Positions 8,776 to 43,601 of a stretch of 62,613 bases of DNA are shown one piece after another. Source of the DNA: Acidimicrobiia bacterium (GTDB lineage: Bacteria; Actinomycetota; Acidimicrobiia; Acidimicrobiales; Bin134). The notes below the pieces were generated by a model, which was not told the origin of the DNA, ran no database searches, and saw only the letters and a list, made by a program, of their open reading frames with translations. The stretch spans positions 1-62,613 of the forward strand of contig JAJEDQ010000130.1 of the NCBI GenBank assembly GCA_022821445.1, written 5' to 3'. A program made the position numbers and the translations under genes. Numbering within the stretch: the stretch's first letter is position 1; each line of letters starts with the position of its first letter.

Positions 8776-9318
8776 ATGAGCTTTACCGGACCTGTTCGCC
8801 GAATCATCACTGGCCACGACGACGGCGGCACTGCGATTATCGTCGCCGACGGCCCTACAAGCCGGATCTTTGATGCGCTTGGCGAGGAGGGCTTGGTTTT
8901 CCAGGAGATTTGGCACACCACCGAGACGCCTGCGTTGATCGACCGCGACCGACGCGAGGCCGAAGAGCCCGGACTGGTGCTCGCGCCGCCGACAAACGGG
9001 GTCCGCATTCGGGTGTTGGACATTCCGCCCGAAGCCGAGGGGGCGGACATGGACGCCGTGTTCGAGAACATCGGCGCGACCGATGCCAAGCTCGAATCCG
9101 ACCGCCACCGGTCCTTCCACCGCACCGAGACCATCGATTTCGGAATCGTATTATCCGGCGAGGTCGTGCTGTTGATGGACGAGGGCGAGGCGACCGTCTA
9201 CCCAGGCGACATCGTCGTACAACGCGGCACCAACCACGGCTGGATGAACAGAACCGAACAACCGTGCCGAGTCGCCTTCATTCTGATAGACGGCCTATAC
9301 ACCGATGGGCTCGGCTAG
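8776..9318 (+). CDS. Cupin domain protein (FdeH-like)
   Basis: VRRIITGHD, HRTETIDFGIVLSGE, GDIVVQRGTNHGW. Confidence 0.88.
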   Translation: MSFTGPVRRIITGHDDGGTAIIVADGPTSRIFDALGEEGLVFQEIWHTTETPALIDRDRREAEEPGLVLAPPTNGVRIRVLDIPPEAEGADMDAVFENIGATDAKLESDRHRSFHRTETIDFGIVLSGEVVLLMDEGEATVYPGDIVVQRGTNHGWMNRTEQPCRVAFILIDGLYTDGLG

Positions 9319-9353
9319 CTCAGGGTGCGGCACTCTCGAGGCACACTGCATCG

Positions 9354-10334
9354 TCATTCGTCGACGACGACAGGCTGGTAAATCTCACCGAAGATAGAAG
9401 TGCCATCGTCGTCAAGAACCTCCATCCGGACGGTTTCTCCATCGCCTAGGAACTGTGTTGACGGCGCCCCCGAGTCGATGATCTCGATCGCGCGGCGCTC
9501 AGCGATGCAGGCTGAGCCCACGGAGCGGTCTGCGCTGGACACCGTTCCCGAACCAATGATCGTTCCCGCAGACAACAGGCGGGTATAAGCAGAGTGGGCG
9601 ATGAGCTCTCCGAAGTGGAAAGTCATCTCGGATCCATGTGGGTGGCCGAACCACTCGCCGCTTCGCTCGACGCGCAATGGGAGGTTCACTCGGCCGTCGC
9701 GCCATGCGCCACCGAGTTCGTCTGGCGTCACCGCGACCGCTGCGAAAGCGGTGGACGGTTTCGCCTGGAGAAAGCCGAATCCAGCCGAGATTTCACGACC
9801 GGCGTAAGCCCGCAGGCTCACGTCATTGATCAACACCAGTAGTTTGACGTGGTCGAGGGCATCGGCGGCAGTGGTCCGCATGGGAACTTCATCGACTACC
9901 ACCCCAAATTCACCTTCAAAGTCGATGCCCTCGTCGAATCGGTATCCGCTGATCGCATCGGTCGGGCCACGCAGGTCGTCGGACGCACCCTGGTAGATGA
10001 ATGGGTAGTCGCTGGGCTCGTTGGGTCGCTCGGGGTGCAGCGCCTGCGACATGAGGTCTAGGTGTGTCTGGAACACCGAGCCGTCGAGCCACTGGGGCGC
10101 CCGCGGTAGCGGTGCCATCGCTTCGCCCGCCTTGAACGCCGCGGAACCGTCGTCGTTACCGGCTTCAATCTGATCAAATCGATCCTGGAGTGCCGGGGCC
10201 ACGTCGTCCCACCGTCTAATCGCCTCGAGCAGTGTTTCTGCGATGTCATCGACCGCCACGCAGTGTTTTAGATCCCGCGAGACCACCACCAAACGCCCGT
10301 TTTCGCTCGGACCAGGCAACGTTGCGAGTTTCAT
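9354..10334 (-). CDS. Fumarylacetoacetate hydrolase family protein (FdeI-like)
   Basis: MKLATL..NGRLVVVSRD, IDFEGE, NDVSLR, GTIIGSGTVS. Confidence 0.9.
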   Translation of the reverse strand: MKLATLPGPSENGRLVVVSRDLKHCVAVDDIAETLLEAIRRWDDVAPALQDRFDQIEAGNDDGSAAFKAGEAMAPLPRAPQWLDGSVFQTHLDLMSQALHPERPNEPSDYPFIYQGASDDLRGPTDAISGYRFDEGIDFEGEFGVVVDEVPMRTTAADALDHVKLLVLINDVSLRAYAGREISAGFGFLQAKPSTAFAAVAVTPDELGGAWRDGRVNLPLRVERSGEWFGHPHGSEMTFHFGELIAHSAYTRLLSAGTIIGSGTVSSADRSVGSACIAERRAIEIIDSGAPSTQFLGDGETVRMEVLDDDGTSIFGEIYQPVVVDE

Positions 10335-10362
10335 CGTGCATCTCCCTCAAAGAACTGCCCGC

Positions 10363-11523
10363 TCACACCGGCCCCGGCACCTCGTCAAACACCTCGGCAA
10401 TCCAGTCCGCAATGAAATGCACGCCGTAGGTCATATTGTCGACGCTGACGTGTTCGACGCCCATTGTTCGGTCGTCGAAGATCTTTAGCTCGCGCTTAGG
10501 GCTGTTTACGAGCTGGTCGTACGTCTGGTGGGCATACTCGAGTGGGATCTGGCGGTCGTTCTGGCCGTGGGTTACGAGGAATGGCACGGTCACCTTGTCC
10601 AGCAGTCCGTCGAGGGTGATCTGGGAGCACAAATCCAGGAACTCGTCCATGTCGGCGGCACCCCACACCCACCGCACGTGTTCCCAATAGTGGGGCACAG
10701 GGCGCTCGCCCTCGTTTTCCAAACGACGGCGCTGGACCTCGCCCCAATTGTGGTTCGCCCCCCAAATGGCACAGAGCGAGAACCGGGGTTCGGCAACGAG
10801 CAAGCGGGGAGCGTAGTAGCCGCCCAAAGAGATGCCAGCCACCCCGATGCGAGAGTTGTCTACGTCGGGACGCGCGCTGACGGCGTCGTAAACCACGCTG
10901 CCCCACTCGCAGGCGGGGGTGGCGAAGAGGCCATGAAGACGCAGCGCCTCACCAGTGCCTGGCTGATCGATGTTGAGGGTATTGATGCCACGTCTGGCGA
11001 GCTGGTCTCCAAGACAGCTCCAGTGGAGCATCTCCTTTGTGGAGTCGAGTCCGTTCACGTAGACCATCGTCGGCCTCGGGCCCTCTCCTCGGTCAGCGCT
11101 CCGGAACCAGGCCGGGATCGTACCGTGGAGGTAAGGAATCTCGACCCGCTCCATGTTTGCGCCGCCCAATTCGACGGAACGGGCGAAGGAGTCAAGCGCC
11201 TTCTGGTACACCGCGGCCCGCTCGGTGCTGCCTTGGGCTTGCATGCGCTCGGCTATTTGATAGTAGAGAGCCGCCCGGTTCAACTTGTCGGCGGCCGCAA
11301 ATCCATGCCCGGCGGCGGAGTCCTCGTCGGCGAGTCCCACCAGTTTGTCGGCCATGATGACCCAAGACTTGAGAAAGTCACCTGTGCCAGGGTTGTCGCC
11401 TTGGGCGGCCGCCTCCCGCAGCGGTGCGCACATCTCCTCGATTTCCCCGATTTGCGCACCGCTTTCCAAGGCGATGCAGACGGAGAGATTCCACACGTAA
11501 TTGCCGGGAAAATACGAGAACAT
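10363..11523 (-). CDS. Alpha/beta hydrolase (2,6-dihydroxypseudooxynicotine-hydrolase-like C-C hydrolase family)
   Basis: MFSYFPGNYVWNLSV N-terminus, NGLDSTKE, DQPGTGEALR, GISLGG nucleophile, HGQNDRQIP. Confidence 0.85.
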   Translation of the reverse strand: MFSYFPGNYVWNLSVCIALESGAQIGEIEEMCAPLREAAAQGDNPGTGDFLKSWVIMADKLVGLADEDSAAGHGFAAADKLNRAALYYQIAERMQAQGSTERAAVYQKALDSFARSVELGGANMERVEIPYLHGTIPAWFRSADRGEGPRPTMVYVNGLDSTKEMLHWSCLGDQLARRGINTLNIDQPGTGEALRLHGLFATPACEWGSVVYDAVSARPDVDNSRIGVAGISLGGYYAPRLLVAEPRFSLCAIWGANHNWGEVQRRRLENEGERPVPHYWEHVRWVWGAADMDEFLDLCSQITLDGLLDKVTVPFLVTHGQNDRQIPLEYAHQTYDQLVNSPKRELKIFDDRTMGVEHVSVDNMTYGVHFIADWIAEVFDEVPGPV

Positions 11524-11565
11524 CTCGGCCGTCACCCCCTCGGGCCGCAACGTATCAGCGACATC

Positions 11566-11594: not shown

Positions 11595-11655
11595 CGGTCA
11601 TCTGTTGTGCTGATGCCATGGGAATCCGTATACGGTCGGCGCCGGAGGGAGGGCG

Positions 11656-12869: not shown

Positions 12870-13805
12870 TCAGGTCGATTCGTCGAAGGTACGCCCGAGA
12901 CGTTTGCGAGCCGAATCAATTAGAAGGCGATCGCGTTCGGCCTCAAGCATTGGCACATCGCGACCAGCGGCTGCTGCTTGAACGCCAGCTACGAGAGCGG
13001 CCTTTGTTGACTGGTCGAGCGCTGGTTTACCGAGGTCTGCCCATCGACGCTCTTGGCTCGGCCCCAGGGCGTCAAGATAGGAGGCCAACCCACCGTCTCC
13101 CCCACCTAAGTGGTAACCCATGTGGACGCCGACCGCAGCCCAACGCAGTCCGGGTCCGTTGATGAGAGCAGTGTCGACGGCTTCGACGTCGGCAATCTCT
13201 TCCGCCACGATGTGAACTGCCTCCCGGTACAGGGCAGACGCCAATCGGTTTGCGATGTGCCCTACAGCGTCTTTTTTCAGCCGGACCGTGACACGATCTG
13301 TTGTTCGGTAGATTGCTTCGACTCGATCGCAGGTAGACGGGTCGATTCCATATATCTCAACGAGGGGTACGAGGTGCGGTGGGTGGAAGGGGTGTGCTGT
13401 GACGAATCGGTCCGAGACTCGAAGGCCAGGTGATAAGTCGCTCCACCGCAGCGATGAGGTCGACGATGCAATGATCGCCGTGTCGGTGACAACGGCCTCG
13501 ATGTCTTCGTACAGGTGCCTTTTGGTCTGGATGGATTCGGGTGCGTTCTCCTGGATTAGCGATGCACCCGACAAGGCTTCAGCAAAGTCATCGGCAAACT
13601 CGACAGAGCCGGCCTCGACGGCCGGGCAGATTTCGGCAAGCTGAGACCGTGCTCGCCTGATCCGTTTGTCTGCGATCTCGTACGTTTTGGTCACCGGATC
13701 CCACAAGGTGACGGCAGCCCCGTAATGAGCGAAGAGAGCCGACCAGCTGGCACCTATCTGCCCCCCTCCGACGACTGCAATTCGCTGTCCCGATAAAGCG
13801 CTCAC
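12870..13805 (-). CDS. 3-hydroxyacyl-CoA dehydrogenase family (carnitine dehydrogenase/lambda-crystallin-like)
   Basis: GGGQIGASW, QENAPE, SSTSS, HPFHPPHLVPLVE, GPGLRWA. Confidence 0.88.
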   Translation of the reverse strand: MSALSGQRIAVVGGGQIGASWSALFAHYGAAVTLWDPVTKTYEIADKRIRRARSQLAEICPAVEAGSVEFADDFAEALSGASLIQENAPESIQTKRHLYEDIEAVVTDTAIIASSTSSLRWSDLSPGLRVSDRFVTAHPFHPPHLVPLVEIYGIDPSTCDRVEAIYRTTDRVTVRLKKDAVGHIANRLASALYREAVHIVAEEIADVEAVDTALINGPGLRWAAVGVHMGYHLGGGDGGLASYLDALGPSQERRWADLGKPALDQSTKAALVAGVQAAAAGRDVPMLEAERDRLLIDSARKRLGRTFDEST

Positions 13806-14608
13806 GAAGAGTTGTCGATCAGAAAGTCGATCGAGGTATCCACCAGTTCTGACAAGCGATCGCGTTCGATCTCCTTGTAGAAGTGATCGCCACCTTCGAC
13901 CAGCACCAAAGTCGCCGATGTCCCCGTCTCTTCCAGCGCAGCGGCAAAGCGCTTGCTCTGCGCAACGGGCACATGAACATCGTTGGTGCCATGCACGAGC
14001 TCGAAGCGAGTCGACGTGGCTCGAATGTGATGGACGGGGCTTGCATTCCTGGCCGCATCGGGAAGCTCGTCCACCACACCCCCCAACAACTGAGCCTCAC
14101 GCGAGCCCGGTCCCCGGTCGACGGGCCCCCCCAGCGCTTCAAGATCATCTTGATGTCGAGCAATGTCTGAGGGGGCGGACCAACAGGTTACGGCGGCCAC
14201 CTCGACGTCGAGGCGTGGGTTGAGAGCAGCGAGTGCGGCCAGGTGGGCACCTGAGGACAGACCCCAGAGCGTGAGCGGAATCTCGGAGACCCCGTAAACA
14301 CCGAGATCGGAGGTGACAAAGCGACACGCAGCAATCACATCTTCGAGCTGGGCAGGAAATATGGCCTCGCCGCTTAGCCGATAGTCACAGGCAGCAACGG
14401 CAAGCTGGCGCTCCGCCATCCTCTCGAGGAACTCCTCACCGGGTCCGGTCATGTGCCCTGGCCCGTCGCGCCGCGACCCCCGGCGCCAGCCCCCGCCGTG
14501 CAGGTAGACGCAGACTGCTCGGGGCTCCTCTGGGACGTACAGGTCCAGCGCCAGCGGCCGAAAGCCCATGACTGATGCGTAGGTGATCGCATGGTGGACA
14601 GCGATCAT
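13802..14608 (-). CDS. Alpha/beta hydrolase (HSL-family esterase)
   Basis: HGGGWRRG, DYRLS, GLSSGAHLA, HGTND; start reassigned to ATG at 14608 to remove overlap. Confidence 0.85.
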   Translation of the reverse strand: MIAVHHAITYASVMGFRPLALDLYVPEEPRAVCVYLHGGGWRRGSRRDGPGHMTGPGEEFLERMAERQLAVAACDYRLSGEAIFPAQLEDVIAACRFVTSDLGVYGVSEIPLTLWGLSSGAHLAALAALNPRLDVEVAAVTCWSAPSDIARHQDDLEALGGPVDRGPGSREAQLLGGVVDELPDAARNASPVHHIRATSTRFELVHGTNDVHVPVAQSKRFAAALEETGTSATLVLVEGGDHFYKEIERDRLSELVDTSIDFLIDNSS

Positions 14609-14612
14609 GTCG

Positions 14613-15872
14613 CTAGCGCGCCGCGGGTTGCTTGTGGAATCGGCCGCCCTGCATGATCGCCACGATCCTCTTGGGTTCCTCGAGTACGGTGATGTCGGCG
14701 ATGGGGTCGCCTTCGACGACGAGCACGTCGGCCAAGTAGTTCTCGGCCAGCAATCCCAGTTCATCACCCATGCCCATCAGTTCGCCACCGAGCTTCGTCG
14801 CTGCTACCAGTGTCTCTGTTTCCGTGTAGCCGAGCTCGGTCACGAAGAGGGCCAGGTCGTGTGCGTTCTTGCCGATGGGGTTGTTTGGAAAGCCGTAGTC
14901 GCCACCGGGTAGCACCCTGATGCCACGGGCTCGCATTTTCGGATAGAGCTCACGCATGTGGTCGAGGCATGCCACTGAGCCCATCTGCTCTGCCATAGCC
15001 CGGTCGATCCCGTACTCCTCCCCGGCGTGGATGTTTGCCCAAATGATCCCCGGCGCCGGCGAGACGAACACCTCGTCTTTGGCCTCTTCGAGCATGTCGA
15101 GTGCCTCTTCGTCTGCATATGTGCAGTGGTAGATCGACCGAAAGCCGTGGCGGACGGCGAGCTTCACCGACTCTGCGGCCTGACAATGCGCGGCAAGCCA
15201 GACGCCGTACTCACGAGCAGTTTCTCCAGCGGCCTTCGCCTGGTCCTCAGAGTACTGGGTGATCTGGCTGCCGCCTTGGACGAAGACGTCGTCATTGCTG
15301 AGGAGCAGCTTGATCGAGTCGAACCCCTGCTCAGCGTGGGACCGAACCCAGTCTGCGAGCGCTGCCGGCTTATCCCAGTCCTCCGGCCTGTCGACTGGAC
15401 CTCGGGGCACGGCATCTCGCTCTGCCGCACAAGCCTTGAACCGCGGGCCGGGGATGACGCCGGCATCTAGCTTGTCTCGGAGGGCAACCTCGGTGGGCAT
15501 CGGAATGAGCGATCCCGCGGAGTAGGCGGATGTAAATCCGGCGTCGAGGAGAATGCCGGCGTTTCGCTCGGCGCGGGCGAGTTCCGAAGGAAATCCTTCG
15601 ATTTTCTCAAAGAAGGAGACATCGAGCGGAGGATTGAAAGATGGGTCTATATGGCCGACGGCTGACGGAAACGTGATATGAGCGTGCGATTCGACGAGCC
15701 CAGGCATGACGGTGCAGCCGGTTGCATCAACAATCTCGTGGCCGTCGTGGTGGTCTGGGTGGTGGCCGGATCGGACCTCGGTGATCCGGTCGCCATCAAT
15801 GACTATTTCACCCGGGGTCGCCGCCGATCCGGTCCCGTCGAATACTTGGCCTCCAGTGATGATGATGGACAT
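14613..15872 (-). CDS. Metal-dependent amidohydrolase
   Basis: MPGLVESHAH, AAHC, IYHCT, GGDYG, ADVLVVEGDP. Confidence 0.88.
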   Translation of the reverse strand: MSIIITGGQVFDGTGSAATPGEIVIDGDRITEVRSGHHPDHHDGHEIVDATGCTVMPGLVESHAHITFPSAVGHIDPSFNPPLDVSFFEKIEGFPSELARAERNAGILLDAGFTSAYSAGSLIPMPTEVALRDKLDAGVIPGPRFKACAAERDAVPRGPVDRPEDWDKPAALADWVRSHAEQGFDSIKLLLSNDDVFVQGGSQITQYSEDQAKAAGETAREYGVWLAAHCQAAESVKLAVRHGFRSIYHCTYADEEALDMLEEAKDEVFVSPAPGIIWANIHAGEEYGIDRAMAEQMGSVACLDHMRELYPKMRARGIRVLPGGDYGFPNNPIGKNAHDLALFVTELGYTETETLVAATKLGGELMGMGDELGLLAENYLADVLVVEGDPIADITVLEEPKRIVAIMQGGRFHKQPAAR

Positions 15873-15905
15873 GGGTTTGGTTCCATTCCTTGGTAGTCGA
15901 GTGTG

Positions 15906-16790
15906 TCAACTGTCGGTCGGTGCGTACAGGTCCATGGTGTATGGCTCTGTGTCGTGTGCTGCGCTCCACCGAACTACGTGATTGCGCAAGATGCCAACGG
16001 CTTCTATCTCGGCCTCGATCTGATCTCCGGGCCGGAGGTAGTAGTCGAAGGGATTGGGCTGCACGGCGGCGACGCCGGAGATCGTCCCCGTCGTGATGAT
16101 GTCGCCAGCTGAGTAACCCTGGGGCGAGTGGTAAGCGACGAGGTGGGGGATGTCGATGCGCATCTGTTTCGTATGGCCCTTCTGACGGACATCTCCGTTG
16201 ACGCGTAGTTCCATGGCCAGGTTCTGGGCGTCATCGATTTCGTCGGCGGTGACGATGTAGGGCCCAATGGGGCAGAACGTCTCGATCGCCTTTGAGAACG
16301 AGAAGACTCCAGACTCCATCTCTCGGCGCTGGATGTCACGAGCTGTGATGTCGTTGAACACCATGTACCCAGCGATGTGGTCAACAGCCTCCTCGGCGCT
16401 GAACCAACGTCCTTGCTTGCCGATGATGATGGCTAGTTCGAGCTCGTAGTCGACCTCATTGGTGAGACCCTCGGGATACACGATTGCATCGTCAGGTCCG
16501 ATGATCGCGTCGACATTTTGAAAAAAGACGATCCCTTTGTGGACGGGATGTGACCAGTCAACGGCAGCGAGCTCCTCGTGGTGGTCGAGGAAGTTGCCCG
16601 CGGTGTGGAAGAACTTCTTGGGCACGATCGGCGCTTCAAGGCGAACTTCGCTCATGGCGATGCGTTCGCCGGTCTCGCGAACGTCACCAGCTCGCTCGAA
16701 GTACTCGCGAGTTGTTCCGCATTCGAGTTCGACCATTAGATCATCCTCGATGCGGCCGACTCTTCCGTTGTTGAAAGTTGCGAGTTTCAT
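15906..16790 (-). CDS. Fumarylacetoacetate hydrolase family protein
   Basis: DYELELA, FNDITARD, GDIITTGT. Confidence 0.9.
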   Translation of the reverse strand: MKLATFNNGRVGRIEDDLMVELECGTTREYFERAGDVRETGERIAMSEVRLEAPIVPKKFFHTAGNFLDHHEELAAVDWSHPVHKGIVFFQNVDAIIGPDDAIVYPEGLTNEVDYELELAIIIGKQGRWFSAEEAVDHIAGYMVFNDITARDIQRREMESGVFSFSKAIETFCPIGPYIVTADEIDDAQNLAMELRVNGDVRQKGHTKQMRIDIPHLVAYHSPQGYSAGDIITTGTISGVAAVQPNPFDYYLRPGDQIEAEIEAVGILRNHVVRWSAAHDTEPYTMDLYAPTDS

Positions 16791-16806
16791 GGGAATCTCC
16801 GGCCTT

Positions 16807-22631: not shown

Positions 22632-22698
22632 GCTGTTCACGGCCCGACTCACCACATCGCACATCGTCTTCGCATTTCGTCCTGACTGTTCCGCGCCT

Positions 22699-22788
22699 TC
22701 AGACCGAGCCCATGGCACCCAAGCACCCGATCGACTGCCCAGCGTGGTCGTCGGTCAAGACGACGACGATGTTCGGGCGCCGAGTCAT
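22699..22788 (-). pseudogene. 29-codon stub of a second sulfatase
   Basis: ATGA overlap with upstream sulfatase stop; reads MTRRPNIVVVLTDDHAGQSIGCLGAMGSV*, the canonical sulfatase N-terminal motif. Confidence 0.75.
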
Positions 22789-25428: not shown

Positions 25429-25468
25429 CGTTGTCCTCGATTCGCGATACATCGGTCGTTCGAAGTGA

Positions 25469-28452: not shown

Positions 28453-28471
28453 TGCCTAAATTGAGCTGACG

Positions 28472-28509
28472 AGGAGGGGTTCGCCGGCAGAGGTCGGCGA
28501 GCCCCTCTT
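28472..28509 (+). terminator. GC-rich stem-loop after the SBP gene (mRNA stabiliser/partial terminator)
   Basis: AGGAGGGGTTCGCCG...CGGCGAGCCCCTCTT inverted repeat. Confidence 0.65.
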
Positions 28510-28558
28510 GCTCCATCCAGGCCGTTGGCCTGCTCAGAATATTGGGGGATCCGGAACC

Positions 28559-34865: not shown

Positions 34866-35810
34866 TCAGCTCCGAAGCTGCTGCTCAAGCTTGTGGAGCC
34901 ACTTGTAGCAACTCATGACTTGGCGGACGGAGCTATTGGGCTCGCGGCCCTCGCGGATGGCGGCAATGAACTCACGGTCTTGGAGCTCGATGCCGTTCAT
35001 GGAAACGTCGACATGAGACACGTCGATGGGTTCGTCGCGCCCCGTGAAGAGGTCGTCGTAGCGGGCAATGTAGGTGCCGGAATCGCCGATGTAGCGGAAA
35101 AATGTGCCGAACGGTCCGTCGTTATTGAACGAAAGTGAGAGCGTGAGGATCGAACCACCGCTGGTCTTCATCTGGATCGACATGTCCATGGCGATGCCGA
35201 GTTCGGGATGGTGGGGGCCTTCGAGCACATTGGCCGCTACGATCTCCTCACCGACCTGGTAGGCGAATAGGTCCACCGTGTGGGCGGCGTGGTGCCAAAG
35301 CAGGTGATCGGTCCATGAACGAGGTTTTCCCAGGGCGTTGGTGTTGGTGCGCCTAAAGAAGTATGTCTGCACGTCCATCTGCTGGATGTTGAGCTCGCCA
35401 GCCTGGAGCTTGCTGCGCAGCCACTGATGCGACGGGTTGAAGCGCCGGGTGTGACCGACCATGGCCACAAGGCCCGAACGCTCCTGTGTAGCGAGCACGG
35501 CTTCCGCCTCGGCAAGCGAATCGGCGAGCGGGATCTCGACTTCGACGTGCTTGCCAGCCTCCATGCAGGCAATCGACTGGCGAGCGTGCATCGGAGTGGG
35601 GGTGGCCAGGATTACGGCGTCCACCTCGTCAACGTTCAGAGCCTCGTCGAGTTCGGTTCCCCAGTGGGTTATGCCGAATTCTTCGGCGACCTCGCGGGCG
35701 GTGTTGGACACGGGGTCGATGACCGATATGACTTCGGCACCATCGATGGCGTCTATTCCCTCTAGGTGTTTGCGACCAAAGGCACCGGCACCAGCAAGGG
35801 CAAGCTTCAT
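34866..35810 (-). CDS. ligC: 4-carboxy-2-hydroxymuconate-6-semialdehyde dehydrogenase
   Basis: GAGAFG, TPTPMH, GHTRRFNPSHQ, RSWTDHLLWHHAAH, SMNGIELQDREF. Confidence 0.9.
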   Translation of the reverse strand: MKLALAGAGAFGRKHLEGIDAIDGAEVISVIDPVSNTAREVAEEFGITHWGTELDEALNVDEVDAVILATPTPMHARQSIACMEAGKHVEVEIPLADSLAEAEAVLATQERSGLVAMVGHTRRFNPSHQWLRSKLQAGELNIQQMDVQTYFFRRTNTNALGKPRSWTDHLLWHHAAHTVDLFAYQVGEEIVAANVLEGPHHPELGIAMDMSIQMKTSGGSILTLSLSFNNDGPFGTFFRYIGDSGTYIARYDDLFTGRDEPIDVSHVDVSMNGIELQDREFIAAIREGREPNSSVRQVMSCYKWLHKLEQQLRS

Positions 35811-35865
35811 CGTAGATCCTCTCGGCTTCCACTCGTGCAGATGATCTTGCCACCTGCCCGCCAGG

Positions 35866-35889
35866 AATGTCGACAATCTTGTTGACATT
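35866..35889. promoter_or_regulatory. Palindromic GntR-type operator between ligC and ligU
   Basis: AATGTCGACAA-TC-TTGTTGACATT near-perfect inverted repeat; shares TGTCGACAATC with 41080-41090. Confidence 0.7.
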
Positions 35890-35904
35890 TGCGAAACTCG
35901 TCCA

Positions 35905-36978
35905 ATGGAAGGCGGCATTCCTTGCATGATCATGCGCGGTGGATCGTCCAAGGGGGCCTACTTCCTGCAAGAAGACTTGCCCACTGGTGCCGATGAGCGT
36001 GCTTCCCTGCTTCGTCGGATCATGGGCTCACCAGACCCTCGCCAGATCGACGGGATTGGGGGGGCCCACCCACTAACGTCGAAGGTGGCAATTGTCGCGC
36101 CGTCTCCCGACGGAGAGGCCGATGTCGACTATCTATTCCTCCAGGTCAACGTTGAAGACGACATAGTTTCCGACCGGCAGAACTGTGGCAACCTGCTTGC
36201 CGGCGTCGCCCCGTTTGCAATCGAACGAGGCGTCATCGATGCTCCCAGCGATGGCGAGGCGACGGTGAGGATCCGCATGCTCAACACCGACTCGATTGCC
36301 ACTGCGCGGCTCGAAGTGCGCGACGGCACCCCGGTCTACGACGGCGATATGACGATTTCGGGCGTGCCAGGAACCGCCGCAGCGATCTCTCTGGAGTTCG
36401 AGGAAATTGCCGGGAGCTCGGCCGCTGCGCTACTCCCGACCGGCAAGCCGTTTGATGAAGTCGAGGGCATCGCCTGCACGATGGTTGACAATGGCATGCC
36501 GGTGGTCGTGATGGCGGCGGCCGACCTCGGTGTCACCGGCTATGAGCCATGCGCCGTCCTCGAAGGCAACGAGGCCCTGCGCACGAAACTCGAAGCGATC
36601 CGCGTCCAAGCGGGATACCGAATGGGCCTCGGTGACGTCAGCGCAACGACAGTGCCGAAGCTCACGTTCGTCGCCCCACCGCAGGCGGGTGGAAATCTCT
36701 GTACTCGCACCTTCATTCCCCACCGGTGCCACGACGCTATAGGTGTGTTTGGTGCGGTGGCGGTCGCCACCGCCGCACTGCTTCGCGGGTCGCCGGCGCA
36801 CGAACTGCTCACTCCACCCGACGACAGCGTGGTCCGGCTCGAGCACCCCACCGGCCATTTTGACGCAGTCATAGAGATCAGCACCGATGCCGACGGCACG
36901 ATCGAGGTTCCCCGCGTCGGGATAATTCGAACCACCCGAAAGCTAATGGACGGCACCGTCTTCCCTCGTCCGGAGTAG
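35905..36978 (+). CDS. ligU: 4-oxalomesaconate tautomerase (PrpF/GalD family)
   Basis: MRGGSSKG, MGSPDPRQIDGIGG..LTSKVAIV, QNCGN, FIPHRCH. Confidence 0.9.
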   Translation: MEGGIPCMIMRGGSSKGAYFLQEDLPTGADERASLLRRIMGSPDPRQIDGIGGAHPLTSKVAIVAPSPDGEADVDYLFLQVNVEDDIVSDRQNCGNLLAGVAPFAIERGVIDAPSDGEATVRIRMLNTDSIATARLEVRDGTPVYDGDMTISGVPGTAAAISLEFEEIAGSSAAALLPTGKPFDEVEGIACTMVDNGMPVVVMAAADLGVTGYEPCAVLEGNEALRTKLEAIRVQAGYRMGLGDVSATTVPKLTFVAPPQAGGNLCTRTFIPHRCHDAIGVFGAVAVATAALLRGSPAHELLTPPDDSVVRLEHPTGHFDAVIEISTDADGTIEVPRVGIIRTTRKLMDGTVFPRPE

Positions 36979-36980
36979 CA

Positions 36981-37886
36981 ATGGCTACTCGTAATCCTCC
37001 CCACACGTTCCCGCTTGAACGAACCGTGGCTGGCCCCCGACCCGAGATCAGTCCGCCGGTGGCGTTCACCCCTCCGCCGCTAGCGTGCGACGCCCACTGC
37101 CACGTCTTCGGCCCGGCCGCGGCGTTCCCGTTCTCCCCCAACCGTACCTACACGCCGCCCGACTCCGGGATCGACGACTTTCTACGCCTTCAGGACCGTC
37201 TCGGTCTCTCGCGTGCAGTGTTCGTGCAGGCCAGCTGCCACGGCTCGGACAACACTGCGATGGTCGACGCAATCAAGCGTGGTGGGGGGAGATTTGCCGG
37301 TGTGGCGATGATCGATCAGTCGTATACCGACGACGACTTAATCGAGTTGCACGAAAACCGAGTGCGGGGCATCCGATTCAACTTTGTCGCCCATCTCGGC
37401 GGTGCCCCCGACCTCGACGAGTTCTGGGAGCTTGTGTACCGGGTCGCCAAGTTCGATTGGCACATTGTCCTGCACTTCGACGCAAAGGACTTCGCCACAT
37501 ACACCGACGTCCTCGATGCCATACCAGTCCCGTACATCATCGATCACATGGCCCGCGTCCCCGCCGCGCACGGTATCCATCAGGAGCCGTTCCAGCGACT
37601 GCTCGAACGCATCTCCACCGACGATCGCTGCTGGGTGAAGATCAGTTGCGCCGAACGTCTCACAGAAGGACAGGTAGCACCATTCGACGATGTCATTCCA
37701 TTGGCTCGGGCGCTCGTCGAAGCAGCCCCTGATCGACTCCTGTGGGGCACCGACTGGCCCCATCCGAACCTCAATGTCATGCCCGACGAAGGCGAGCTTC
37801 TCGATCTCCTTGCAGCCTTCGCTCCCGACGAATCCGTACGAAACCGCATTCTGGTGGACAATCCCCAGGTGCTGTATACCTTCTAG
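36981..37886 (+). CDS. ligI: 2-pyrone-4,6-dicarboxylate lactonase
   Basis: DAHCHVFGP, VQASCHGSDN, IDHM, WGTDWPHPN. Confidence 0.85.
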   Translation: MATRNPPHTFPLERTVAGPRPEISPPVAFTPPPLACDAHCHVFGPAAAFPFSPNRTYTPPDSGIDDFLRLQDRLGLSRAVFVQASCHGSDNTAMVDAIKRGGGRFAGVAMIDQSYTDDDLIELHENRVRGIRFNFVAHLGGAPDLDEFWELVYRVAKFDWHIVLHFDAKDFATYTDVLDAIPVPYIIDHMARVPAAHGIHQEPFQRLLERISTDDRCWVKISCAERLTEGQVAPFDDVIPLARALVEAAPDRLLWGTDWPHPNLNVMPDEGELLDLLAAFAPDESVRNRILVDNPQVLYTF

Positions 37887-37891
37887 TTGCT

Positions 37892-38530
37892 ATGAGCCGC
37901 GCTGATTCCGTCACCGACACCCTTCGGCAGGCCATCCTGAAGGGCCGATTCGAGCCGGGAGATCGCCTCCTGGAAGTGGCGCTTGCCGAGGAGTACGCGG
38001 TGGGCCGGGCCGCGATTCGGTCTGCGCTCTTGGAGCTGACGTCCGGGGGACTCGTGAAGCGAGAGGCCAACCGTGGCGCGACTGTGCGGCGGATTTCGAT
38101 CGCCGAGGCGATCCAGATCACCGAAGCACGCGCCGTTCTCGAGAGTCTCATCGCCGCCAGGGCGGCCCGCAATGCGTCAGCCGAATGCCACTCAGAACTC
38201 CGCCAGATCATCGCCGAAATGGAAGAAGCTGTCAGCGACGGCCAGAGCCAGGCCTATTCCGAGCTCAATGGACACATGCACTGCCGCCTAAGGGAAATGA
38301 GCGGCCACCATATTGCCTCGCAGCTGGTCGCTAATCTGCGCGATCGCGCCGCCCATCACCAGTACCGGCTCGCATTGATGCCGGGCCGCCCAATCGAGTC
38401 CCTGGAGGAGCATCGGGCAATTGTCGAAGCAGTCGTCGCTGGCGAAGAGGACACGGCTGCGCAGGCAATGCAAAACCACCTCCACTCGGTGATCGACGTG
38501 TTGACACGATGGGGCGACGCTCCCCGCTGA
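37892..38530 (+). CDS. GntR/FCD family transcriptional regulator
   Basis: LRQAILKGRFEPGDRLLE..VGRAAIRSAL, EEHRAIV. Confidence 0.92.
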   Translation: MSRADSVTDTLRQAILKGRFEPGDRLLEVALAEEYAVGRAAIRSALLELTSGGLVKREANRGATVRRISIAEAIQITEARAVLESLIAARAARNASAECHSELRQIIAEMEEAVSDGQSQAYSELNGHMHCRLREMSGHHIASQLVANLRDRAAHHQYRLALMPGRPIESLEEHRAIVEAVVAGEEDTAAQAMQNHLHSVIDVLTRWGDAPR

Positions 38531-38569
38531 AGGCTTGACGTCCTGGTACGGGGCTCAATTTGACGGGGA

Positions 38570-39361
38570 TCAGATGTCGGGGAGATCTGGCAGACCTTCG
38601 GCAAGAACCGATTCGAGAATTTGCATCGTGGCTTGAGTCATAGTGGATGCCACAACGAGTTCGTCGAGGAGGTCGACGGCGGCCGCCATCTCATCGAGAC
38701 GTCGCTTGGCGTGGAGGCCAGTTCCTTCTACGAGACGGCGGATAAACTGCTCGTCGGCATCGGCCAGCTGTCCCATCACGCTCTGCCAGGTCTCGACGGC
38801 GAGATCGGCCTTTCGGGCGCCCCTCAAGGACTCGATCAAAACGGCGGCAACGCCTTTGATCACGACGCTGCGCAGCAGCTTTCGGGTGGCGGCCTCACCC
38901 GGTTCGGTGCCTACGACCTCGACCGTGGCACCGAGAGGGGTGACGGCAGCGAGGAACTCGGCGGCGGCGGGGCCGGAGGCGAGCATCGGCGTGCGCAGGC
39001 CACGATCCGGAACGGTGGTCATAAGTGCGATGTCGGTGAACCGGAGGCTTGCGCCTGCCGCCATAGTTGCGAGCTCTCGTTTCTTTGCCGGTGACGATGT
39101 CGACAAGTCGGCATAGACGGCACCCGTGGGAATCGTGTGGAGGGCTTGGGTCAGCGCGTCCAAAGCATCAGCGCCCGCCGTGATGGCGAGTACGAACTCG
39201 GCGTCGACCACCGCAGACGCAGGATCCGTCACACGCATGACACCGGTTGGCGTGTCAACGTCAGCCGGATCAAATCCGATGACCTCGGCCCTGGCGGCGG
39301 CGAGGTCTCGGCTGATCTCCGATCCCGCTTCGCCTAGGCCGAAGACTGCGATGCGCATCAT
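38570..39361 (-). CDS. NAD(P)-dependent oxidoreductase (6PGD-like N-terminus, DUF1932-type C-terminus)
   Basis: GLGEAG, KLLRSVVIKG, HAKRRLDEM; commonly coupled to ligK. Confidence 0.8.
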   Translation of the reverse strand: MMRIAVFGLGEAGSEISRDLAAARAEVIGFDPADVDTPTGVMRVTDPASAVVDAEFVLAITAGADALDALTQALHTIPTGAVYADLSTSSPAKKRELATMAAGASLRFTDIALMTTVPDRGLRTPMLASGPAAAEFLAAVTPLGATVEVVGTEPGEAATRKLLRSVVIKGVAAVLIESLRGARKADLAVETWQSVMGQLADADEQFIRRLVEGTGLHAKRRLDEMAAAVDLLDELVVASTMTQATMQILESVLAEGLPDLPDI

Positions 39362-40062
39362 TCGAGTGACTCGACCCACTCGACGCCCATAGCGGCGAGC
39401 TCGGCGCGCAGCCCGTAGAAGTCGAGTCCAAGCTCGCCAGCTTCGAGCCTTGCTCGAGTGCCTGCCTCCTTGGCAAGCCGCGCATTCGATTGCTCAAGCG
39501 CCCAGGCCGCTTCTCCGCGAGCTACGACCACAACTCCATCATCGTCGGCGCATATCACATCGCCGGGATGGACGATCTGCTCGCCGATGCGAATCGGTAC
39601 GTTGACCGAACCGGCGGTGTTCTTTACCGTGCCTTGGCAAGAGACATGGCGACTCCAAACGGGGAAGCCCATTTCTCGCAGTTCAGCGGTGTCGCGAACA
39701 CCTGCGTCCGTGACAAGGGCCCGCACGCCCCGGGCCATTACCGACGTGCCGAGTAGATCCCCGAATCCGCCGTGGGTCGACGGTGCGGTGGTGGTGACAA
39801 CCAGGATGTCGCCAGAGCCGCACTGTTCGACGGCAGCGTGGATCATTCCGTTGTCGCCTGGATGACAGAGGACGGTGACTGCGGTGCCGGCGACGCGGGC
39901 ACCAGTCTGTATCGGCGTGATCTCGGCGCCGAAATAACCACGACGGCCGATGGCCTCGTGCACAGTGGCCGTGCCCATCGAGGCAAGGGAGTCAACGGTG
40001 TCGAGCGGCGCTCGCTCGATTGAAGTGACGACGACGTGGCGTGGTCCATGGATATTGGTCAT
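39358..40062 (-). CDS. ligK: 4-carboxy-4-hydroxy-2-oxoadipate aldolase
   Basis: ATVHEAIGR, PGDNGMIH, FGDLL, GVRDT, DDDGVVVV. Confidence 0.9.
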   Translation of the reverse strand: MTNIHGPRHVVVTSIERAPLDTVDSLASMGTATVHEAIGRRGYFGAEITPIQTGARVAGTAVTVLCHPGDNGMIHAAVEQCGSGDILVVTTTAPSTHGGFGDLLGTSVMARGVRALVTDAGVRDTAELREMGFPVWSRHVSCQGTVKNTAGSVNVPIRIGEQIVHPGDVICADDDGVVVVARGEAAWALEQSNARLAKEAGTRARLEAGELGLDFYGLRAELAAMGVEWVESLE

Positions 40063-40063
40063 T

Positions 40064-41065
40064 TCAGGCTCCGAGACGGGGGTAGACGCGGCGAATATTT
40101 GATTCGTAGATCGCCGCCCGATCGGCATCGGTGATGTTCGCAGCGTCGATATAGACCTTTGTGTCATCGAAGTAATTCCCGGTGTCAGGATCGATGCCGC
40201 GCACGGCACCGACCATCTCCGATGCGAATAGGACGTTTTCCATCGGAACGACGTCGACGAGCAGATCGATTCCAGGCTGGTGGTACACGCAGGTATCGAA
40301 CCAGATGTGATCCATGAGCCCGTCGAAGTCCCAGCCTTTGTCTTGGGCAAGGCCTTTGAAGCGACCCCAGTGGTACGGGACAGCGCCTCCGCCGTGGGGT
40401 ATCACCCAGCGCAGTCCGGGGAAGCTACTCATGAACCCGGACGTGAGCGCTTGGACGAATGCTGTTGTATCGGCGCCGAGATAATGGGAACCGGTGGTTA
40501 AGAAGTGCTCATTGCACGATGTGGAGACATGGATCATTCCGGGTACGTCGAGTTCCTGCATGGCCTCCCAAAGGGGCCACCAGTAGCGGTTCCAGAGCGG
40601 CGGCCCGTTCCAGAGGCCACCGGATGGATCGGGATTCACGTTGCAGCCGATGAAGCCCATCTCCTGGACACAGCGGCGCAGCTCATGCACCGACGAGTCG
40701 ATAGCCACTCCGGGTGATTGCGGCAGTTGGCATACTGGGGCGAAATTCTCGGGAAAAAGGTCGCAGCAACGTCGAATCAACTCGTTCTGGTGTTCGGTCC
40801 AGAATAGTGACGTGTATTCGTTGCCCAAATGGTGACCCATCCAACTGGCTCGCGGCGAGAAGATCGTGAGATCGGTGCCCCGCTCCCTCTGGAACTTCAG
40901 CTGGGCGCCCTCGAGCGACTCGCGGATTTGGTCGTCGCTGACATTGATGACCCCTTTCTCTCCCACGTGGAGCGGATCAGCCTCGACTTCAGCAGTTTGA
41001 GCCTTTCGCCACTCGCCAACCGACGGCGGTGTAGTGGTGTAATGGCCATGGCAATCTATGACCAA
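40064..41065 (-). CDS. ligJ: 4-oxalomesaconate hydratase
   Basis: IDCHGHYTT, FSPRAS, HGGGAVPYHWGR, DTCVYHQPG, FASEMVGAVRG; TTG start. Confidence 0.93.
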   Translation of the reverse strand: MVIDCHGHYTTTPPSVGEWRKAQTAEVEADPLHVGEKGVINVSDDQIRESLEGAQLKFQRERGTDLTIFSPRASWMGHHLGNEYTSLFWTEHQNELIRRCCDLFPENFAPVCQLPQSPGVAIDSSVHELRRCVQEMGFIGCNVNPDPSGGLWNGPPLWNRYWWPLWEAMQELDVPGMIHVSTSCNEHFLTTGSHYLGADTTAFVQALTSGFMSSFPGLRWVIPHGGGAVPYHWGRFKGLAQDKGWDFDGLMDHIWFDTCVYHQPGIDLLVDVVPMENVLFASEMVGAVRGIDPDTGNYFDDTKVYIDAANITDADRAAIYESNIRRVYPRLGA

Positions 41066-41077
41066 CGGGCCCCCTGG

Positions 41078-41099
41078 ATTGTCGACAATCGTGTAAACA
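41078..41099. promoter_or_regulatory. GntR-type operator between ligJ and ligA
   Basis: Perfect palindrome ATTGTCGACAAT followed by TGTAAACA. Confidence 0.7.
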
Positions 41100-41155
41100 G
41101 TTTGCCATACTGCGCACGCGCAACAACGGGGCCTACAACTCACCGAGGAGATCCA

Positions 41156-41554
41156 ATGGCTATCGAAAAGCCCTACCTCGACATTCCCGGCACGATCGTC
41201 TTTGATGCCGACCAGGCTCGTCTGGGGTATCACCTCAACCAGTTCGCAATGTCGCTCATGAACGCCGACAACCGCAAGCGGTTCAAAGCCGACGAGGATG
41301 CCTACCTCGACGAGTGGGGTATGACCCACGAGCAGAAGCAAGCAGTTGTCGACCGCGATTTCAACCGTCTCCTCGCCCTTGGTGGCAACATCTACTTCCT
41401 GGCCAAAATCGGTGCGACCGACGGTCTCAGTTACGTCCAGATTGTGTCCTCGATGACCGAGAACGACGCCGACCAGCATGCCGCGATGATGATCGCCGGC
41501 GGTCGGTCGGTTGATGGCAACCGGTATCTGCATGAGTGGGAGGATCGCCCGTGA
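41156..41554 (+). CDS. ligA: Protocatechuate 4,5-dioxygenase alpha subunit
   Basis: KPYLDIPGT, GYHLNQFAMSL, GGNIYFLAK. Confidence 0.95.
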   Translation: MAIEKPYLDIPGTIVFDADQARLGYHLNQFAMSLMNADNRKRFKADEDAYLDEWGMTHEQKQAVVDRDFNRLLALGGNIYFLAKIGATDGLSYVQIVSSMTENDADQHAAMMIAGGRSVDGNRYLHEWEDRP

Positions 41555-42420
41555 GCGCCCGCATCGCTGCGGCCTTGTTCATGTCGCATGTCCCCGCCAT
41601 TGGTGTCGCTTCTGACTTGGGCAAGACCGAGGAGCCCTATTGGAAGCCACTATTCGACGGCATGCAGCCGGCGCGCGACTGGATAGCGGCCAATCCGCCC
41701 GACGTTGTGATCCTGGTGTACAACGACCATGGCAATGCGTTTTCCCTCCAGATGATCCCGACGTTCGCGCTCGGCATGGCCCCGTTCTACGAACCCGCCG
41801 ACGAGGGCTGGGGGCCACGGCCGGTACCCACAGTCGAAGGGCACCCGGCGTTGTCGGCACATATCGCCCAAAGTGTTATCCCAGCCGGTTTTGACCTCAC
41901 CCTCGTCAATGAGATGACCGTTGACCACGGTCTCACCGTTCCGCTCACCATGATGTTTGACAAGCCCGATGCGTGGCCGTGCAAGGTGGTGCCGCTTGCG
42001 GTCAACGTGGTACAGCATCCGACACCCTCTGGGCGACGATGCCTCGAGCTCGGCAAGGCTTTGCGAACCGCCGTCGAGACCTTCGATGACGACATCATCG
42101 TCCAGATCTGGGGGACCGGCGGTATGAGTCACCAACTTCAGGGTGCCCGGGCCGGATTGATCAACGCGGAGTTCGACAATCGATTCATGGACGACATGAT
42201 CAACGACCCCGAAGTCCTCGCCGAAGTGCCGCCGGTCGAGTACTTGCGTGAAGCAGGCAGTGAGGGGATCGAGCTGGTTATGTGGCTGATCGCCCGTGGC
42301 TCCATGTCCGACTTGGCCGGCGGAGGTAGTCCAGGGGAGGTGCATCGCCTGTATCACGTGCCCGCGAGCAACACCGCGGTCGGACAGCTGGTTCTTGAGA
42401 ACGGCACGGTTACTGCGTGA
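41551..42420 (+). CDS. ligB: Protocatechuate 4,5-dioxygenase beta subunit
   Basis: SHVPAIG, YNDH, VDHGLTVPL, GTGGMSHQL, EAGSEGIEL. Confidence 0.95.
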   Translation: MSARIAAALFMSHVPAIGVASDLGKTEEPYWKPLFDGMQPARDWIAANPPDVVILVYNDHGNAFSLQMIPTFALGMAPFYEPADEGWGPRPVPTVEGHPALSAHIAQSVIPAGFDLTLVNEMTVDHGLTVPLTMMFDKPDAWPCKVVPLAVNVVQHPTPSGRRCLELGKALRTAVETFDDDIIVQIWGTGGMSHQLQGARAGLINAEFDNRFMDDMINDPEVLAEVPPVEYLREAGSEGIELVMWLIARGSMSDLAGGGSPGEVHRLYHVPASNTAVGQLVLENGTVTA

Positions 42421-43601
42421 GGAGGCAAGTGGTCATTGTTGGCGGGGGACCGGCCGGATCGCTGCTGCTGCACATCCTTCACAACGCTGGAATCGACGCG
42501 ATCGTCCTAGAACGACAAACCCGCGACTACGTTTTGGGCCGCATCCGCGCTGGTGTGCTCGAGTGGGGCACTGTCGAAGTTCTGCGGGCCAACGGACTTG
42601 GGCGCAACATGGATGCCGAGGGACATGTCCACGACACGATCAACATCGCATGGCGCGGATCCGAACTGCTAACCGTCGACACCAACCTCCAAATGGGCCG
42701 TCAAATGATGGGTTATGGCCAAACCCGCATCCAAAAGGACCTCTACGATGCGAGTGACGCGGTCGGAAGCGAGATCGTCTTTGAAGCGGATGACGTAGCC
42801 ATACACGACATTGAGACAGAAGCGCCATGGGTTACCTACTGCCACAACGGGGTCAACGAACGCATTGACTGCGACTACGTGGTTGGCTGCGACGGTTTCC
42901 ACGGCATCAGCCGCCAAACCATACCGAAGTCGATCCGCACCGAGTACCTCAAGGAATACCCATTCGGCTGGCTGGGCATCCTCGCCGAGACCCCTCCAGT
43001 CCCGTACCTCCTGTACGCCAACCATCATCGCGGCTTCGCCCTTTGCTCCAGCCGCAATCCGATGCTGGCACGCTTCTACGTGCAGTGTGAGCTGACCGAT
43101 TCCGTCGATGACTGGTCAGATGACCGCTTCTACGAGGAGTTAACGGCCCGCCTCCCTGCTGATCAGGTCGCGCTCATCTCGCCAGCTCCATCGATTGAGA
43201 AGTCAATAGCGCCGCTTCGCAGCTATGTAGCGGAGCCGCTACGCCACGGGCGCCTGTTTCTCGCCGGCGACGCCGCCCACATCGTGCCGCCTACTGGGGC
43301 CAAGGGCCTCAATCTGGCGGTGGCCGACGTTCACTATCTGTCGCAAGCGCTGATGGCCGTCTATGCCGGGAACACGTCCGGCATCAACCGCTATTCCGAC
43401 GTGGCATTGCGCCGTGTATGGAGCGCGGTCCGGTTTAGCTTCTGGATGACGAACCTGCTCCATCGGTTCCCCGGCCAAACGGCTTTCGAGCAGCGCACTC
43501 AGGAACAGGAGCTGCGCTACATCTCCAGCTCCCCGGCAGCTCAGCAGTCGCTAGCAGAGCAATACACCGGTCTTCCGTTCGAGACCCTTGGCGCCGACTA
43601 A
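42417..43601 (+). CDS. pobA: 4-hydroxybenzoate 3-monooxygenase
   Basis: YVLGRIRAGVL, GCDGFHG, YPFGWLGIL, GDAAHIVPPTGAKGLNLA. Confidence 0.96.
   Translation: MRRQVVIVGGGPAGSLLLHILHNAGIDAIVLERQTRDYVLGRIRAGVLEWGTVEVLRANGLGRNMDAEGHVHDTINIAWRGSELLTVDTNLQMGRQMMGYGQTRIQKDLYDASDAVGSEIVFEADDVAIHDIETEAPWVTYCHNGVNERIDCDYVVGCDGFHGISRQTIPKSIRTEYLKEYPFGWLGILAETPPVPYLLYANHHRGFALCSSRNPMLARFYVQCELTDSVDDWSDDRFYEELTARLPADQVALISPAPSIEKSIAPLRSYVAEPLRHGRLFLAGDAAHIVPPTGAKGLNLAVADVHYLSQALMAVYAGNTSGINRYSDVALRRVWSAVRFSFWMTNLLHRFPGQTAFEQRTQEQELRYISSSPAAQQSLAEQYTGLPFETLGAD

Follow-up and report, generated by a model that had tools for sequence, protein, structure and literature searches.

Genes for the bacterial cleavage of the flavonoid A ring have so far been tied only to Herbaspirillum (fde) and Variovorax (ifc). 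In Herbaspirillum seropedicae, the FAD monooxygenase FdeE acts with the Rieske protein FdeD to hydroxylate naringenin at C8, followed by fission of the A ring; FdeC is a glyoxalase-type dioxygenase and FdeA resembles a phenol-degradation protein. The isoflavone genes of Variovorax sp. V35 encode enzymes that act one after another, namely the hydroxylase IfcA, the VOC dioxygenase IfcB, IfcC, which is related to 2,6-dihydroxy-pseudo-oxynicotine (DHPON) hydrolase, and IfcD cupins, with IfcA being specific for isoflavones and its homologs reported from Proteobacteria only. Here we analysed a 62,613-nucleotide stretch of DNA from an Acidimicrobiia bacterium (contig JAJEDQ010000130.1 of assembly GCA_022821445.1, hereafter the window; source genome 3.4 Mb, 92.7% complete), which carries an fde-like gene module and a protocatechuate 4,5-cleavage gene set. 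We read positions 8646-53772, with slightly better than even confidence, as an accessory catabolic island encoding an actinobacterial variant of the fde/ifc type that is coupled to a funnel from benzoates through protocatechuate 4,5-cleavage and acts on a flavonoid-like substrate. The substrate would most likely be a flavonoid-like 7-hydroxy-benzopyranone, and a conjugated flavonoid is plausible.

Gene families were assigned from the listing of open reading frames (ORFs) together with Pfam and NCBIfam scans. The fde-type set comprises a cupin of the FdeH/IfcD type (8776..9318, plus strand; Cupin_2, best solved structure 3es1), an FdeI-type fumarylacetoacetate hydrolase (FAH) with N-terminal domain 2 (9354..10334, minus; FAA_hydro_N_2 and FAA_hydrolase), a C-C hydrolase-like alpha/beta hydrolase of the FdeB/IfcC type (10363..11523, minus; its ORF is open to 11667 and the start, M49, was placed by alignment), a two-domain VOC extradiol dioxygenase of the 3b59 type (19119..20057, minus; E 1e-66 to that solved structure), a group A FAD monooxygenase of the FdeE subfamily (20081..21205, minus; NF005313) and an FdeR-type LysR regulator (25720..26694, plus; HTH_1 and LysR_substrate). 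For a further cupin structure, 8x0u, no paper carrying that code was found.

The reference for comparison was reached via a Collimonas locus: 301 genomes of its family were sampled, 11 contained the monooxygenase, and one of these (G209) was chosen. The G209 monooxygenase shares 92-95% identity with proteins that carry the name Herbaspirillum sp. or H. seropedicae, and the locus in this genome runs LysR (divergent), Phenol_MetA_deg, alpha/beta hydrolase, VOC, Rieske, FAD monooxygenase, major facilitator superfamily (MFS) transporter, cyclase, cupin, FAH and NAD-epimerase. This arrangement matches the published fde features, namely a phenol-degradation-like FdeA, glyoxalase FdeC, Rieske FdeD and FAD monooxygenase FdeE, and it is this locus, rather than that of H. 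seropedicae SmR1 itself, on which the comparison rests. Six of its 11 proteins found their best match in the whole 3.4-Mb source genome (search at E<1e-6) inside window positions 8776-26694. The alpha/beta hydrolase was 54.5% identical to the window gene, with one other, far weaker match in the genome; the FAH (55% to 9354-10334) had no other match, and the cupin (44%) had two weaker ones. The FAD monooxygenase (34%, near full length), the LysR (31%) and the VOC (35% over 145 residues only) each matched nowhere else in the genome. Because all six strongly matching fde-locus proteins map best within 18 kb, the clustering is not attributable to chance. In the reverse direction, the best match of the window LysR in G209 was the fde-locus LysR (132.9 versus 100.8 bits), making the pair reciprocal best matches at 31-33% identity, and the window monooxygenase was likewise the reciprocal best match of the fde-locus enzyme. 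The monooxygenase also scored 415 bits on NF005313 (cut-off 372), a model on which the FdeE ortholog of G209 reaches 535 bits and the Sphingobium, Massilia and Deinococcus enzymes 475, 500 and 455 bits, respectively. These comparisons show the fde-type architecture to be true homology, beyond a similar list of families. An initial annotation of the locus had proposed such an fde-type set within a candidate complete pathway for conjugated flavonoids; the set is borne out by the best-match tests, the reciprocal matches and the shared subfamily, and all of the gene families it listed are present at the coordinates given here. Its gene list also passed over a 3-hydroxyacyl-CoA-dehydrogenase-like protein, a BD-FAE esterase, an amidohydrolase, a CMD-family protein, a short-chain dehydrogenase/reductase (SDR), a MetE-like protein and a GntR regulator.

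Compared with fde of SmR1, the window shares homologs of the LysR, alpha/beta hydrolase, FAD monooxygenase, cupin and FAH, and has a VOC gene beside the monooxygenase. Unlike fde, it is without the Rieske FdeD, cyclase FdeG, outer-membrane FdeA and MFS transporter FdeF, its VOC is of another lineage, its genes extend over 18 kb, interspersed with accessory genes, and an ATP-binding cassette (ABC) importer stands in place of the MFS transporter. The hosts differ too, a plant-associated betaproteobacterium on the one side and a sponge Acidimicrobiia on the other. Going by the published description, the same four enzyme types as in ifc of Variovorax sp. V35 are present, and the best solved relative of the window hydrolase is DHPON hydrolase (2jbw); its best solved relatives are C-C hydrolases. 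A match on a Variovorax RA8 plasmid (35% to the alpha/beta hydrolase) was discarded, as it is not an ifc-like cluster. The window hydrolase shares 54-59% identity with its counterparts from Herbaspirillum, Massilia, Sphingobium and Deinococcus, and the window cupin 60% with that of Sphingobium pKN1.

Starting from the window hydrolase, loci with the same set of genes were found on plasmids of Sphingobium, Massilia and Deinococcus, and an alignment of four hydrolases yielded 594 relatives in species genomes, 80 of whose loci were kept, each extending at most 10 kb to either side of the hydrolase; Herbaspirillum and Variovorax are absent among these 80. Homologs of the window proteins near the hydrolase were most often the FAD monooxygenase (64 of 80 loci), the FdeI-type FAH (58) and the LysR (52), followed by the cupin (29), the window-type VOC (28) and the SDR (27). 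The P450 (7), amidohydrolase (6), VanA-like oxygenase (5, at 33-36% identity), LigC (5), LigB (4), PobA (3) and metallo-beta-lactamase (MBL)-fold hydrolase (1) were found in few. Three loci from Acidimicrobiia metagenome-assembled genomes (MAGs; L074, L076 and L077) are 97-100% identical to the window from cupin to monooxygenase and keep the intervening accessory genes (12870..19052) at 98-99%. More distantly, the module adjoins protocatechuate genes in a Gammaproteobacteria MAG (L073), where the order is LysR, monooxygenase, hydrolase, FAH, VanA-like, PobA, LigC, LigB, LigA, LigJ, LigK and LigU, and a Sphingomonas MAG (L083), Niveispirillum (L041) and an Ilumatobacteraceae MAG (L037) resemble it in that the module adjoins vanA-like, pobA or lig genes. 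All four place LysR, monooxygenase, hydrolase and FAH, with the VOC in some, beside lig genes; the Gammaproteobacteria and Sphingomonas loci also adjoin vanA-like and/or pobA genes, and none of the four has GH1, a family-5 importer or a sulfatase within 10 kb. The coupling of the upper module to hydroxybenzoate and protocatechuate catabolism is a recurrent design in several unrelated lineages. The link to pobA and ligABCIJKU put forward in the initial annotation is in this way corroborated by its recurrence. Its claim that the combination was undescribed holds in a narrow sense: no paper on the four fde-like clusters with pobA/lig genes, and none on a cluster of this kind from Acidimicrobiia or sponge symbionts, was found in open-access texts, but the module together with lig/pobA genes exists in other genomes.

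In the window, the lower pathway is encoded at 34866..43601, where LigA, B, C, I-like, U, J-like and K are all present. LigC (34866-35951, minus; OxRdtase_C, 308 bits), LigU (35905-36978, plus; NF033377, 475 bits against a cut-off of 440), LigK (39358-40350, minus; NF006731, 312 against 179), LigA (41156-41554, plus; PF07746) and LigB (41536-42420, plus; NF009903, 483 against 317) were assigned by family models, and LigI-like (36981-37886, plus) and LigJ-like (40064-41533, minus) by Amidohydro_2 and synteny with L041, L073 and L083 only. PobA follows at 42417-43601 (plus; TIGR02360, 561 bits against 538.7), and the block further contains a GntR regulator (37742-38530, plus) and an NAD_binding_2 protein (38570-39379, minus), both from family scans. 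The regulator is thus GntR-type; we take the pathway itself to resemble that of Sphingobium sp. SYK-6.

Entry into this funnel could be provided by two oxygenases. The cytochrome P450 (11656..12849, plus), which is divergent from the alpha/beta hydrolase and FAH genes, aligns to CYP199A4 over residues 8-397 (366 bits, E 1e-108; 361-367 bits to CYP199A4 and CYP199A2), the 4-methoxybenzoate demethylases of Rhodopseudomonas palustris, and keeps an Arg and a Ser at aligned CYP199A4 positions that we take to be carboxylate binders. This full-length match bears out the earlier CYP199A label, and the P450 is classed as CYP199A-like on its sequence. The second is a VanA/DdmC-family Rieske monooxygenase (24379..25452, minus; VanA_C and Rieske), whose best solved structure is dicamba demethylase DdmC at 165 bits. 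Between it and the LysR gene, a possible ORF of about 40 codons (25470-25591, minus) was spotted by eye. Upstream of LysR, a 5-bp inverted repeat with an 11-bp spacer, also found by eye, was rejected as a LysR box, being within chance and unlisted by a seed-6 repeat search. The LysR gene stands between two divergent gene strings, pointing away from the minus-strand string 25452-12870.

On the other side of LysR lies an Opp/Dpp-type importer (26824..32451, plus), consisting of a lipoprotein substrate-binding protein (26824-28452; SBP_bac_5, with a lipobox), two ABC permeases (28508-29500 and 29497-30354) and two ABC ATPases (30287-31438 and 31435-32451), all from Pfam. It is followed by a cytoplasmic GH1 beta-glycosidase (32477..33718, plus; Glyco_hydro_1, 193.6 bits) that keeps the NEP and TEHG motifs and has no signal peptide. 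In the minus-strand string, a cytoplasmic S1 sulfatase (22785..24254; Sulfatase and SGSH_C) scores 146.5 bits on PF00884, carries CSPSR at residue 54, has no signal peptide and reaches no NCBIfam equivalog cut-off; FGE-sulfatase matches occur on two contigs away from the window (C72 and C256). The neighbouring MBL-fold hydrolase (21495..22718, minus; Lactamase_B_2) found only generic MBL clusters in an Atlas search, with weak homologs (26-27%) close to the module in L060 and L073. These features of the binding protein, GH1 and sulfatase are compatible with import followed by cytoplasmic deconjugation, and other imported glycosides would fit equally well.

From homologous enzymes we infer each reaction and substrate as follows. 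The FdeR-type LysR would sense the substrate, and the ABC importer, GH1 and cytoplasmic sulfatase beside it may supply the aglycone from conjugates. The FdeE-subfamily monooxygenase would hydroxylate the phenolic ring beside an existing hydroxyl (in flavonoids, at C8 of the A ring), the VOC extradiol dioxygenase would open the hydroxylated ring, and the DHPON-hydrolase-like alpha/beta hydrolase would cut a C-C bond of the fission product, with the cupin and FAH enzymes trimming the remainder to a one-ring acid. The CYP199A-like P450 and VanA-like oxygenase would demethylate methoxybenzoates, PobA would hydroxylate 4-hydroxybenzoate, and LigAB, C, I, U, J and K would convert protocatechuate to pyruvate and oxaloacetate.

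The initial annotation placed all of this at 8776-43601; the genes do lie there, but the island is larger and bounded by tRNA genes, running from 8646 to 53772 between tRNA-Ser (CGA; 8556..8645, plus) and tRNA-Arg (ACG; 53773..53850, plus), both called with ARAGORN. In a complete genome of the same genus (G701), copies of the two tRNA genes (98% identical at G701:C1:2898841-2898928 and 92% at G701:C1:2899029-2899106) are just 100 bp apart instead of 45.1 kb, the island is absent, and the sequence is colinear with window positions 312-8497 at 78-81% identity. The alpha/beta hydrolase occurs in two of 401 sampled genomes of the class, the source genome (G000) counted, and is absent from two genomes of the same genus. 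G+C content is 0.59-0.66 over 8-48 kb, whereas the sequence to its left has 0.66-0.69 and the right end of the window 0.67. No direct repeat of at least 10 bp was found between the two island borders, and no integrase among the ORFs scanned for families across the island; from the borders, insertion in this genome and deletion in G701 cannot be told apart. The region to the right of tRNA-Arg (54255-61216) encodes the alpha subunit of a Rieske ring-hydroxylating enzyme, a pair of amidohydrolases, a family III CoA-transferase and an SDR. Parts of it map to a remote site in G701, at about 1.02 Mb, so that the two genomes differ by a rearrangement of this flank.

The host is a sponge-associated Acidimicrobiia. 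Seven runs labelled as sponge metagenomes, from three studies (P1-P3), each contained at least half of the sampled sequence words, and a sponge run of a fourth study (X8 of P4), with a word share of 0.31, was confirmed by contig alignment; run X9, whose share is small, does not count toward this habitat assignment. Long near-identical contigs from runs X1, X6 and X8 align to the window, X1 possibly being the sample from which this genome came. The X6 contig matches the window from 8749 onwards, and its first 286 letters differ from the left flank of the window; in that sample, a different sequence may lie next to the left edge of the island. In an RNA library (X10, word share 0.06), contigs fell on parts of 9163-9468, 10224-10421, 15015-15887 and 26143-28608, where DNA carry-over is possible; the uncovered parts are uninformative, and these contigs are not taken as evidence on expression or operons.

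Several observations weigh against the flavonoid-directed pathway proposed above, and the first group concerns the substrate. Judged by sequence, the window monooxygenase is only 34% identical to the FdeE ortholog, which weakens the flavonoid assignment, and a paralog in G209 scores nearly as high against it as the fde-locus gene (185.6 versus 194.6 bits); its best solved relatives reach about 96 bits. In a maximum-likelihood tree of 87 rows of translated matches (LG+G4, SH-aLRT supports only), it groups with Ilumatobacteraceae, Kineococcus and Cellulosimicrobium in an actinobacterial clade of 11 rows (support 100). The G209 enzyme belongs to another clade of 73 rows, nearly all from Proteobacteria (support 93), and the window enzyme lies outside it; how the two clades and the outgroups branch relative to one another is not settled, and since rows were picked by linkage to the hydrolase with few outgroups, the tree shows separateness rather than a place among all group A monooxygenases. 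IfcA is 36% identical to FdeE, yet has another substrate range, so specificity is unreadable at such a distance. By NF005313 membership and the reciprocal best match the monooxygenase belongs with FdeE; in the tree it stands outside the clade of the FdeE ortholog. A VOC of the FdeC type did not hold up: of 312 residues, the 145 that align to the FdeC-position protein (35%) belong to the C-terminal domain only, and the protein shares 39% identity with the VOC from the Sphingobium cluster and 56% with one from Rhodococcus. By these matches it is assigned to a lineage other than that of FdeC and groups with 3b59-type VOCs. Among the 80 loci, the nearest type was FdeC in 35, 3b59 in 27 and a catechol-2,3-dioxygenase-like type in seven, with none in 11, and the dioxygenase slot is accordingly variable across the cluster family. 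On a plasmid of Rhodococcus sp. USK13 (L001, 6621-12939), the 56% VOC relative, the closest one with a named host, lies next to genes for a Rieske dioxygenase of two subunits, a ferredoxin, a reductase, an SDR and a hydrolase, a context indicating that this VOC lineage also serves dioxygenase-started pathways, not just those begun by an FdeE-type monooxygenase. Finally, we know of no flavonoid source in the sponge habitat. The low FdeE identity, the distinct monooxygenase clade, the other VOC lineage and the sponge habitat make the substrate class the weakest point.

The same observations favour a reading in which the chemistry is as proposed and the substrate is a non-flavonoid phenolic whose hydroxylated ring is joined to a second unit by fusion or through a ketone, the remainder passing to the benzoate funnel. 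Candidates include chromones, coumarins, xanthones, naphthopyrone-type aromatic polyketides and sponge or alga phenolics, possibly sulfated or halogenated. To the monooxygenase clade apart from that of FdeE, the VOC lineage found with a Rieske dioxygenase in Rhodococcus and the sponge metagenome label may be added the presence of two sulfatases in the island and the kinship of the hydrolase to Ayg1-type polyketide-shortening hydrolases (8qd7, 66.9 bits). Against this, the sole experimentally tied relatives of the gene set act on flavonoids, and no dehalogenase family was seen in family scans of the island. The context of the Deinococcus locus further suggests plant glycosides: on Deinococcus aetherius plasmid pDAETH-1 (L004), GH3, sugar ABC genes and a trio of sugar-phosphate isomerase, DUF6379 and GMC oxidoreductase, at 6037-8955, stand beside an fde-like module at 9090-16524, whose VOC is of the catechol-2,3-dioxygenase type and which includes two FAD oxidoreductases. 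The trio is presumably a C-glycoside deglycosylation system and a lead toward plant glycosides. On balance, we consider a non-flavonoid substrate somewhat unlikely.

A second group of contrary observations concerns the coherence of the island. Sulfatase, GH1 and family-5 binding protein genes occur within 10 kb of the hydrolase in none of the 80 loci. The association of glycosidase, importer and sulfatase with the module is peculiar to this lineage, so flavonoid deconjugation, which the initial annotation had made part of the pathway, is tied to it through adjacency here and not through recurrence. The contig encodes no ferredoxin or reductase of the Fer2 type that could partner the P450 or the Rieske oxygenase, and the P450 has none adjacent; redox partners must therefore come from elsewhere. 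At E<1e-6, homologs of the FdeA, FdeD, FdeF and FdeG types were not found in the 92.7%-complete genome, and an FdeJ-type protein gave a weak match alone, on another contig. Of the 80 related loci, 28 have the Rieske FdeD and 26 the cyclase FdeG, so both are often missing in relatives too. With no Fer2 partner on the contig, 'complete' proved too strong a description of the pathway. The lig block, moreover, has a GntR regulator of its own.

These points raise the alternative that the island is a mosaic without single-substrate logic, whose modules, each with its own substrate and regulator, would comprise beta-glucoside or oligosaccharide uptake with GH1, host-glycan sulfatases, a methoxy/hydroxybenzoate-to-protocatechuate funnel and the fde-like module. 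Beyond the absence of GH1, family-5 binding protein and sulfatase genes from related loci and the separate GntR, it draws on the SGSH_C domain of the sulfatase, which is typical of carbohydrate sulfatases, and on the many ligand classes taken by family-5 binding proteins; the NCBIfam models matched by this one are for binders of nickel, glutathione and peptides. A pair of PIN-type toxin genes (44699-45100 and 47471-47848, minus; PIN and DUF5615/PIN_10, feature span 44699..48069) and a second sulfatase (48136-50535, minus; Pfam, an ORF of 799 amino acids) inside the island point the same way. The gene arrangement argues otherwise, with the FdeR-type LysR directly between the VanA-like/sulfatase/MBL/monooxygenase and ABC/GH1 strings and short gaps within each; the module adjoining lig, pobA and vanA-like genes recurs in unrelated lineages, and the absence of signal peptides from GH1 and the sulfatase suggests that they act on imported small molecules. 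We regard such a mosaic as unlikely, and retain the fde/ifc-type variant coupled to the protocatechuate funnel as the preferred reading.

Between the P450 and VOC genes lies a run of minus-strand genes, all assigned by Pfam and NCBIfam below equivalog cut-offs: a 3-hydroxyacyl-CoA-dehydrogenase-like protein (12870-13805), the BD-FAE esterase (13802-14767), the amidohydrolase (14613-15872), an FAH (15906-16790), the CMD-family protein (16807-17403), a second FAH of this run (17400-18254) and the SDR (18255-19052). A homolog of the amidohydrolase (49%) is embedded within the module of L060. Carnitine catabolism was rejected as a role for the 3-hydroxyacyl-CoA-dehydrogenase-like gene, every score being below its cut-off. 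Vitamin B6 degradation, raised by weak matches to FHMPC dehydrogenase (131 bits, where the cut-off is 500) and MHPC oxygenase structures (about 85 bits) and by the presence of an MBL, was ruled out by the score of the monooxygenase on the FdeE-type model. Between GH1 and LigC, a MetE-C-terminal-like protein (33724..34836, minus; NF005085, 468 bits against 313) might, as a guess, handle methyl groups released in O-demethylation. Each PIN-type toxin gene has a small upstream ORF, and the pair sits between the lig/pobA block and the second sulfatase; an FMO/BVMO-like flavoprotein (51133-52788, minus; Pfam) also falls inside the island.

The furthest-reaching possibility, which we consider quite improbable, is that a sponge symbiont imports, deglycosylates, desulfates and completely mineralises conjugated marine-plant flavones, or an analogous marine phenolic, by means of one tRNA-flanked island. 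Seagrasses contain sulfated flavone glycosides. If this were true, sponge holobionts would act as sinks of polyphenols in dissolved organic matter through an actinobacterial version of an A-ring cleavage pathway so far known from plant-associated Proteobacteria only. More broadly, the 80 related loci show the core of hydrolase, monooxygenase, FAH and LysR to be spread over many phyla, with its dioxygenase slot filled by at least three VOC lineages and with a recurrent coupling of the core to the protocatechuate 4,5-cleavage funnel. The actinobacterial version from a sponge symbiont provides concrete genes with which to ask what role this chemistry may have outside the rhizosphere and in polyphenol degradation by sponge microbiomes.

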